Positions 343 through 6,905 of a DNA stretch of 15,513 bases are shown here, piece after piece. The stretch is taken from NCBI GenBank assembly GCA_938038265.1, contig CALHRC010000079.1, positions 1-15,513 on the forward strand, read 5' to 3'. The stretch's first letter is position 1. Every line of letters starts with the position of its first letter. The position numbers and the translations under genes are program-made. Under the pieces are notes generated by a model. It ran no database searches, was not told where the DNA came from, and saw only the letters and a list, made by a program, of their open reading frames with translations. Origin of the DNA: an uncultured bacterium (GTDB lineage: Bacteria > Spirochaetota > Leptospiria > Turneriellales > Turneriellaceae).

Positions 343-371
343 TTGAACTGCTAAGAAAAGAATCGTATAAT
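343..371 (+). promoter_or_regulatory. Near-consensus sigma70-type promoter: TTGAAC (343-348), 17-bp spacer, TATAAT (366-371).
   Basis: Hexamers and spacing read directly. The predicted transcription start (~377-379) coincides with an ATG at 377. Confidence 0.55.
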
Positions 372-376
372 GTAAT

Positions 377-544
377 ATGGACATAGGAAAAATTGATCCC
401 TATACGGTGCCGGTAAACCAGCCGCAGACAACCCCACCACAGCCACAACCCACAACAGAAAACGAACCCAAAGCCGATGCCGGCAGCAGTGGCGTTACGC
501 CGCCGGTACCTGAGAATATCCCTAAAATAGATTTTTATGCTTAA
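377..544 (+). CDS. Possible leaderless small ORF, 55 aa, Pro/Thr/Gln-rich (MDIGKIDPYTVPVNQPQTTPPQPQPTTENEPKADAGSSGVTPPVPENIPKIDFYA). Alternatively the CA-rich 5' leader of the downstream gene.
   Basis: I translated this myself. It falls below the 60-aa cutoff of the supplied ORF track. The ATG sits 6 nt after the -10 hexamer. It is in the same frame as the 563 ORF and separated from it by a single TAA (542-544). No similarity recognised. Confidence 0.25.
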   Translation: MDIGKIDPYTVPVNQPQTTPPQPQPTTENEPKADAGSSGVTPPVPENIPKIDFYA

Positions 545-562
545 AAAGCCGATATTAATACC

Positions 563-6870: not shown

Positions 6871-6905
6871 TTGACATACCCGCAGGTTATAATATCATTG
6901 CGGGA
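6871..6905 (+). promoter_or_regulatory. Promoter-like region: perfect TTGACA (6871-6876) and perfect TATAAT (6888-6893) only 11 bp apart, embedded in an inverted repeat CCCGCA(6879-6884)...TGCGGG(6899-6904).
   Basis: Read directly. The spacing is non-canonical for sigma70. The palindrome straddles the -10, which suggests an operator. It lies 24-58 nt upstream of the SPFH gene, which has a GAGGT Shine-Dalgarno at 6917-6921. Confidence 0.35.

Follow-up and report, generated by a model that had tools for sequence, protein, structure and literature searches.

Short disordered proteins are known to bind TPR and other helical-repeat partners via a C-terminal peptide, the EEVD motif of Hsp70 and Hsp90 and its TPR co-chaperones being an example. 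At the level of translation initiation, dRNA-seq of Leptospira interrogans (Zhukova et al. 2017; PMC5243855) identified ~440 genes with a 5'UTR of <10 nt, of which 184 have the transcription start site exactly on the start codon, indicating that leaderless initiation is routine in this order. A distinct class of promoters, recognized by sigma-28, is described by the consensus TAAAGTTT-n11-GCCGATAA, and at the Escherichia coli aer promoter, transcription starts 6 bp after the -10 octamer (PMC2859248).

Here, we analyzed a 15,513-nt stretch of spirochaete DNA (the window), in which positions 343 to 1381 are, as judged from orthologous loci, a two-gene module conserved across Leptospirales, with a gene for a small, predicted disordered protein ahead of one for a 272-aa protein of predicted helical-repeat structure. 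The following features, all on the plus strand, are referred to throughout.

343-348, +, -35-like hexamer TTGAAC of the putative small-gene promoter (10/12 consensus match with a 17-nt spacer)
366-371, +, -10 hexamer TATAAT, 5 nt 5' of the ATG at 377 (consensus scan)
377-544, +, small-protein gene, 55 aa, disordered and Pro/Gln/Thr-rich (orthologues, codon-position signal)
420-480, +, CA-rich tract (84% C+A), the codons of a low-complexity linker ...QPQTTPPQPQPTTENEPKADA...
527-541, +, codons for the conserved I-D-F-Y-A motif at the C terminus ([IV]-D-[TF]-Y-A across the family, followed by the stop)
542-544, +, TAA, the genuine stop of the small gene (orthologue frames; identical in two other runs)
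548-555, +, GCCGATAT box, 7 nt 5' of the ATG of the 272-aa gene (kept in orthologues)
563-1381, +, gene with its own ATG for the 272-aa all-helical repeat protein (Leptospirales and Treponema)

The promoter (343-371), the ATG at 377, the ORF from 377 to 544, the TAA at 542-544, and the ATG at 563 were all placed correctly in the first-pass annotation. It also described the small product aptly as Pro/Gln/Thr-rich and devoid of a hydrophobic segment: the peptide (MDIGKIDPYTVPVNQPQTTPPQPQPTTENEPKADAGSSGVTPPVPENIPKIDFYA) contains 12 Pro, 6 Thr, and 4 Gln residues and no such segment. The two ATGs share one frame [(563-377) mod 3 = 0], the gap between the small-gene stop and the 272-aa gene is 18 nt, and the interval from 377 to 563 contains no terminator-like site. 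When the TAA was re-read in contigs from two other runs (L006 and L007; ERR9287890 and ERR9287621), these matched the window with 0 mismatches across the TAA and reproduced the stop; thus, a sequencing error at this codon is unlikely. An antisense ORF at 302-616 (104 aa) was discounted as a side effect of the CA-rich strand, the codon-position signal being located in the plus-strand frame.

To define the extent of the family, orthologous loci were gathered by exact-protein look-up and by scanning one genome per species. An ORF of 45 to 67 codons is present directly upstream of the orthologue of the 272-aa gene in 37 of ~40 Leptospirales loci. Among the orthologous peptides, both termini are conserved, with M-[DE]-[IV]-x-x-[IV] at the N terminus and [IV]-D-[TF]-Y-A-stop at the C terminus (the D and A of the latter being at least 90% conserved across the family), and the middle is variable in both sequence and length, stays Pro/Gln/Glu-rich, and often contains a TG..G motif. 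The codons of the C-terminal motif differ synonymously among the loci (atcgatacctacgcc, atagacacgtacgcc, and gtcgacacttacgca), a sign that selection acts on the peptide. Differences at the three codon positions of the small ORF in the Turneriella clade number 813/563/1873, so that the third position dominates, and pN/pS is ~0.30 in this clade and 0.46 in a second clade in which the ORF has a Shine-Dalgarno motif. Thus, the small ORF is a real, separate protein-coding gene under purifying selection. Its 41 database homologues (51 to 67 aa) are, without exception, named "hypothetical." Neither the window peptide nor 25 family members matched any Pfam or NCBIfam model, no Pfam family was hit by two or more of the 25 members at E <= 10, and a profile search run exhaustively against 1.84 billion cluster representatives recovered five representatives, all of them from the small-protein family itself. 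The small protein is hence an uncharacterized family restricted to Leptospirales. From its small size, disorder, MDI-like start, and ...ID.xA-like end, we had presumed a resemblance to the YjfB-type "putative motility" proteins (PF14070) and the anti-sigma-28 factor FlgM; membership in either was dropped, as the 25 members gave no Pfam match even at E <= 10. The pairing of the two genes is not universal: in two more distant Leptospirales loci (L035 and L037; partner identities, 49% and 40%), lgt is the immediate upstream neighbor, and a small ORF is absent within 120 nt. As a separate observation, the small ORFs of L003 (489-647) and L005 (987-1154), contigs from related samples, are identical in their 3' two-thirds and in the partner gene and have unrelated 5' ends and upstream DNA, each ATG being preceded by AGGGGGG; this mosaic could be due to strain-level recombination or an assembly chimera.

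The product of the downstream gene has 55 homologues in Leptospiraceae, Turneriella, and other metagenome-derived spirochaete genomes, with the full-length members spanning 262 to 288 aa. No known domain was found in these homologues, and the protein is all-alpha, with a TPR-like helical-repeat (solenoid) fold. In an alignment of 27 homologues, M1 is invariant, A2 and D4 are at least 90% conserved, and all sequences begin with MA[VI]D. None of the 55 homologues has an N-terminal extension, indicating that the gene begins at the ATG at 563. The observation in the first-pass annotation that this ATG has no Shine-Dalgarno motif holds, yet 10 of the 16 gene starts in the window share that property in a simple scan (including those of GshA, ABC, ADSL, and AlaRS), which makes the bare start at 563 unexceptional; initiation without a Shine-Dalgarno motif seems to be common in this genome. 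In Treponema (L048-L087), the homologue (~267 aa) lies directly downstream of recN, often overlapping the recN stop by one base, and no small ORF is found between the two.

The tract at 420-480 is, as previously pointed out, strikingly CA-rich; it is 84% C+A and lies in the richest part of the window, in which the top 61-nt stretches for C+A (up to 0.885) are at 410-417. The C+A fraction of the small ORFs is 0.60 in leaderless-type and 0.56 in Shine-Dalgarno-led loci, a marginal difference, and the CA-rich stretch is absent as a conserved nucleotide-level feature in the orthologues. The RNA of 377-600 folds no more stably than shuffled sequence (z = -0.38), which suits a coding region and leaderless initiation. 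Searches of Rfam gave nothing at the gathering threshold for the whole window and chance-level matches only at E <= 1 for positions 1 to 700, and no tRNA or tmRNA gene was found. We conclude that the tract owes its CA richness to the codons of a disordered linker rich in Pro, Gln, and Thr. By analogy with the reported enhancement of leaderless translation by CA repeats just 3' of the start codon (PMC9031893), it could additionally aid such translation.

Two readings of this segment raised earlier can be weighed against these data. One of these took the shared frame to mean a single gene of ~330 aa broken by a stop, whether a pseudogene, a sequencing error, or a case of programmed TAA readthrough. 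The two ORFs do lie in one frame here, with a single stop codon between them, as they likewise do in L001 and L008. However, among the orthologues, the frame of the small ORF relative to the 272-aa ORF is 0, 1, and 2 in 18, 9, and 11 loci, respectively, and the intergenic gap varies from 2 to 109 nt; the occurrence of all three relative frames removes both the readthrough and the pseudogene variants. The search for a stop-free single ORF in orthologous loci recovered no fused version. Together with the invariant M1 and MA[VI]D starts of the 272-aa homologues, none of which is N-extended, the conserved ...YA-stop end of the small peptide, and the TAA reproduced in the two other runs, this leaves a single interrupted gene with a negligible probability, and the shared frame across the TAA is due to chance. 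The other reading regards 377-544 as a noncoding, CA-rich, unstructured translation enhancer or as an attenuator leader peptide of indifferent sequence. The extreme composition of the tract, the lack of structure in its RNA, and the reported effect of CA repeats would all fit such a leader. In contrast, the codon-position differences and the pN/pS of ~0.3 reveal purifying selection on the protein, with conserved termini encoded by synonymously varying codons, at odds with an ordinary leader; moreover, the small ORF has a strong Shine-Dalgarno motif of its own in other clades, no alternative attenuator-type hairpins or terminator occur between 377 and 563, and the CA-rich stretch itself is not conserved. 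We therefore regard a noncoding or sequence-indifferent leader as very improbable.

Having established that the small ORF is a gene, we turn to its start. The promoter TTGAAC-17-TATAAT, originally held to be the best in the window, is in fact second by one rank (10/12), after TTGACA-16-TATCAT at 6871 (11/12). Promoter-like matches in the window number 28, compared to 24.9 +/- 5.5 in shuffled sequence; given the lack of an excess, the match alone is weak, and its meaning comes from the comparative evidence. No Shine-Dalgarno motif (GGAG, GAGG, or AGGA) is present within 18 nt upstream of the ATG at 377. In 13 further loci, a TAnnnT hexamer is situated 5 to 7 nt (usually exactly 6) 5' of the small-ORF ATG, again without a Shine-Dalgarno motif. 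Within the Turneriella clade, the spacing between the end of this hexamer and the ATG is exactly 6 nt in 12 of 13 loci, none of which has a Shine-Dalgarno motif, and an A-tract with TTGGCC, TTGCC(G/A), or CTGGCC occurs 18 to 19 nt upstream of the -10 hexamer, the spacers having otherwise diverged. L001, whose partner protein is 80% identical, has TTGACC-17-TAAACT, which likewise ends 6 nt before the small-ORF ATG. Loci of other clades display GGAGG or AGGGAGGGA 5 to 8 nt 5' of the small-ORF ATG and no adjacent -10 hexamer. The small-ORF starts fall into four classes, whose locus counts overstate the number of independent observations because loci of one clade are related by descent.

Shine-Dalgarno motif, no adjacent -10: 17 loci
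Adjacent -10, no Shine-Dalgarno motif: 13 loci
Both Shine-Dalgarno motif and -10: 1 locus
Neither Shine-Dalgarno motif nor -10: 7 loci

The promoter-adjacent starts use ATG in every case. This near-exclusivity of the -10 hexamer and the Shine-Dalgarno motif is expected if the mRNA either starts at the ATG or contains it internally behind a Shine-Dalgarno motif. Thus, of the interpretations previously put forward, the one that gains support is that of two genes with a leaderless upstream peptide, both from the 37 of ~40 loci with the small ORF and from the -10 spacing in the 13 further loci. The mRNA of the small gene is most likely leaderless, a prediction that consensus matches and comparative spacing support without proving. 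A further candidate promoter-adjacent start is found at 1424-1462, where TCGCCA-17-TATATT ends 7 nt before the proposed GTG start (1460) of the glutaredoxin gene, which has no Shine-Dalgarno motif. This may be another such start, although leaderless initiation works poorly with GTG and the gene may actually begin elsewhere.

The DNA upstream of the promoter has features of its own. Positions 20 to 335 are extremely structured (MFE, -137 kcal/mol; z = -6.7) and contain two identical perfect 22-nt palindromes, CTGTTCAGGAATTCCTGAACAG (28-49 and 273-293), each followed by a CCCC..GCAGGGG hairpin, with twin GTCCGACA..TGTCGGA hairpins between the palindromes at 172-231. This region has no Rfam match, and a metagenome-wide search for the palindrome CTGTTCAGGAATTCCTGAACA recovered one unrelated contig. 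It could be a repeat/MITE-like element, a terminator cluster, or a noncoding RNA.

The start of the 272-aa gene is marked by a different signal, one that the first-pass annotation does not mention. In 21 of 38 loci, a [CT]CGA[ATG]NNT box occurs 13 to 15 nt before its ATG without a Shine-Dalgarno motif, with an octamer-to-ATG separation of 6 to 7 nt and an invariant CCGA position. The 10 loci with a Shine-Dalgarno motif at this gene have no box, and in these, the genes are only 11 to 12 nt apart. In ~270 kb of Leptospirales DNA, 19 of the 22 matches to the box plus ATG are at the 272-aa gene. The only other convincing box plus ATG among the fetched loci is on the minus strand of L032 (start at 2129; CCGATAATAAAATATG), before a divergent gene for a 375-aa protein with a lipoprotein-like signal peptide. 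The window box, GCCGATAT, agrees with the sigma-28 -10 octamer GCCGATAA in 7 of its 8 bases, and a start spacing like that of sigma-28 would put the transcription start at the A of the ATG at 563 or beside it. At the canonical 11-nt spacing, no -35 element TAAAGTTT was found, the window having agattttt at 529-536 (4/8), and box-anchored alignment revealed no conserved -35. The box in the Turneriella clade is (G/A)CCGAAAAT, and in L020-L030 of this clade, a hairpin lies between the small-ORF stop and the CCGA box, where the -35 of the box would lie (e.g., tttttttccatgccacgcatggaaaaaaa in L027). In these hairpins, the 5' side has a T-run and the 3' side has an A-run, and the stem differs among the loci with complementarity kept; neither strand has a 3' U-tract, so that they are not classic terminators. 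The neighboring genes gave no link to motility and are not flagellar. In a comparison covering only four independent flaB loci from Leptospiraceae and Leptospira genomes, made without statistical controls, the upstream regions carry CCGA-type boxes (aaaaaaaaCCGAAGTT in L089, TCCGATAC in L093, and ACCGATAG in L091), of which aaaaaaaaCCGAAGTT resembles aaaaaaaCCGAAGCT at the 272-aa gene in L028; the flaB boxes lead into long leaders with strong Shine-Dalgarno motifs. This fits with CCGA boxes being sigma-28 -10 elements in this lineage and proves nothing. The box at 548-555 is possibly of sigma-28 identity, given its octamer and spacing.

The alternatives at this stage concern the transcripts. 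For the small gene, the mRNA might have a leader, with the promoter further upstream, in or beyond the structured region at 1-340, and with TTGAAC and TATAAT being fortuitous; initiation would then occur at an internal AUG without a Shine-Dalgarno motif, aided by A/U-rich upstream sequence and ribosomal protein S1. Promoter-like matches at chance frequency in the window are in line with this, as are the seven orthologous loci with neither signal and the 10 of 16 window starts without a Shine-Dalgarno motif, which imply that such initiation must be routine here. A fortuitous hexamer, however, does not account for the -10-to-ATG distance being kept while the flanks diverge (6 nt in all but one of the 13 Turneriella-clade loci) or for the almost mutually exclusive distribution of the two signals, and leaderless starts are frequent in Leptospira. 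A leadered mRNA thus appears unlikely to us, and a leaderless start at 377 remains the preferred reading. For the 272-aa gene, the competing explanation is that it has no promoter of its own and is translated from a bicistronic mRNA by re-initiation or 70S scanning after the TAA at 542-544, the CCGA box then acting in the RNA or as a protein-binding site instead of as a -10. The 18-nt gap without a terminator means that the gene could equally be read from the small-gene transcript; in the Shine-Dalgarno clade, the genes, at 11 to 12 nt apart, clearly form one operon; a sigma-28 -35 element is missing; and 70S scanning is an accepted route of initiation (PMC9031893). Against this, the gap in the Turneriella clade is 38 to 109 nt, often with a stable hairpin that is unfavorable to re-initiation, and the box-to-ATG distance is nevertheless exact; the box is also a 7/8 match to GCCGATAA, and the interval between it and the ATG is the one usual between such an octamer and the start site. 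Bicistronic translation is accordingly an option that we keep in view, albeit with some doubt.

Considering the above, we favor, as reasonably probable, an account in which a separate gene for a disordered small protein would have a leaderless start and be followed by an independent 272-aa gene with a second -10 box. In this proposed scheme, the sigma-70-type promoter TTGAAC-17-TATAAT would set the transcription start at or within 1 to 2 bases of the A of the ATG at 377, and a 70S ribosome would initiate on the 5'-terminal AUG of the small-gene mRNA. The GCCGATAT-type box would serve as the -10 of a second promoter, possibly of the sigma-28 type, from which the 272-aa gene would likewise be transcribed with little or no leader. 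Since the small protein is disordered, has conserved termini, and is encoded next to a helical-repeat scaffold, the two may act as a peptide-scaffold pair, in which the C-terminal [IV]D[TF]YA peptide, and perhaps the N-terminal motif too, would dock onto the helical-repeat partner.

Across clades, only the small gene and the 272-aa gene stay together, and their neighbors differ. Synteny of the downstream glutaredoxin-BolA-Grx4-GshA-GshB-GST cluster is confined to the nearest relatives, and other clades have lgt, hrcA-grpE, or adenylate cyclase as neighbors. A functional link to the glutathione genes was considered and found to be unsupported, synteny being limited to those nearest relatives.

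These results turn an ambiguous stretch into two correctly bounded genes and add to the gene inventory of Leptospirales a lineage-restricted small-protein family without a Pfam or NCBIfam model, one that is easily missed because gene calls are inconsistent. They also provide a clean comparative example of orthologues that would switch between Shine-Dalgarno-led and promoter-adjacent (leaderless) starts, a pattern from which leaderless genes may be predicted in uncultured spirochaetes that lack RNA data. The current understanding is unchanged in that leaderless mRNAs have already been documented as common in Leptospira. In its most far-reaching form, to which we give a low likelihood, the locus would be a previously unrecognized, Leptospirales-wide two-component module in which the C terminus of the small protein docks onto its partner and which, in one branch, is expressed from leaderless sigma-70 and sigma-28-like (-35-less) transcripts; if this is true, sigma-factor activity could determine the relative amounts of the two proteins.

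When compared with the known systems, the small gene resembles the leaderless mRNAs of L. interrogans (PMC5243855; reviewed in PMC9031893) in having a -10 hexamer 5 to 6 nt before the ATG, no Shine-Dalgarno motif, and an unstructured 5' coding region and in belonging to the same bacterial order, but starts were mapped there, whereas at this locus they are predicted from sequence. It further differs from known leaderless cases in that the ATG is promoter-adjacent in some orthologues and preceded by a strong Shine-Dalgarno motif in others and in that two consecutive genes both look leaderless. With sigma-28 (FliA) promoters, the box before the 272-aa gene shares the -10 octamer (7/8) and a distance of 6 to 7 nt to the putative start, compared to the reported 6 bp; in contrast to those promoters, it has no -35 (4/8) and no evident motility role, and in the Turneriella clade, the CCGAAAAT box has a hairpin in place of the -35. 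The putative protein pair, finally, is like the Hsp70/Hsp90 EEVD-TPR system in combining a short disordered protein that ends in a conserved C-terminal pentapeptide with an all-helical repeat protein, which is here the product of the adjoining gene; the two co-occur across the order.
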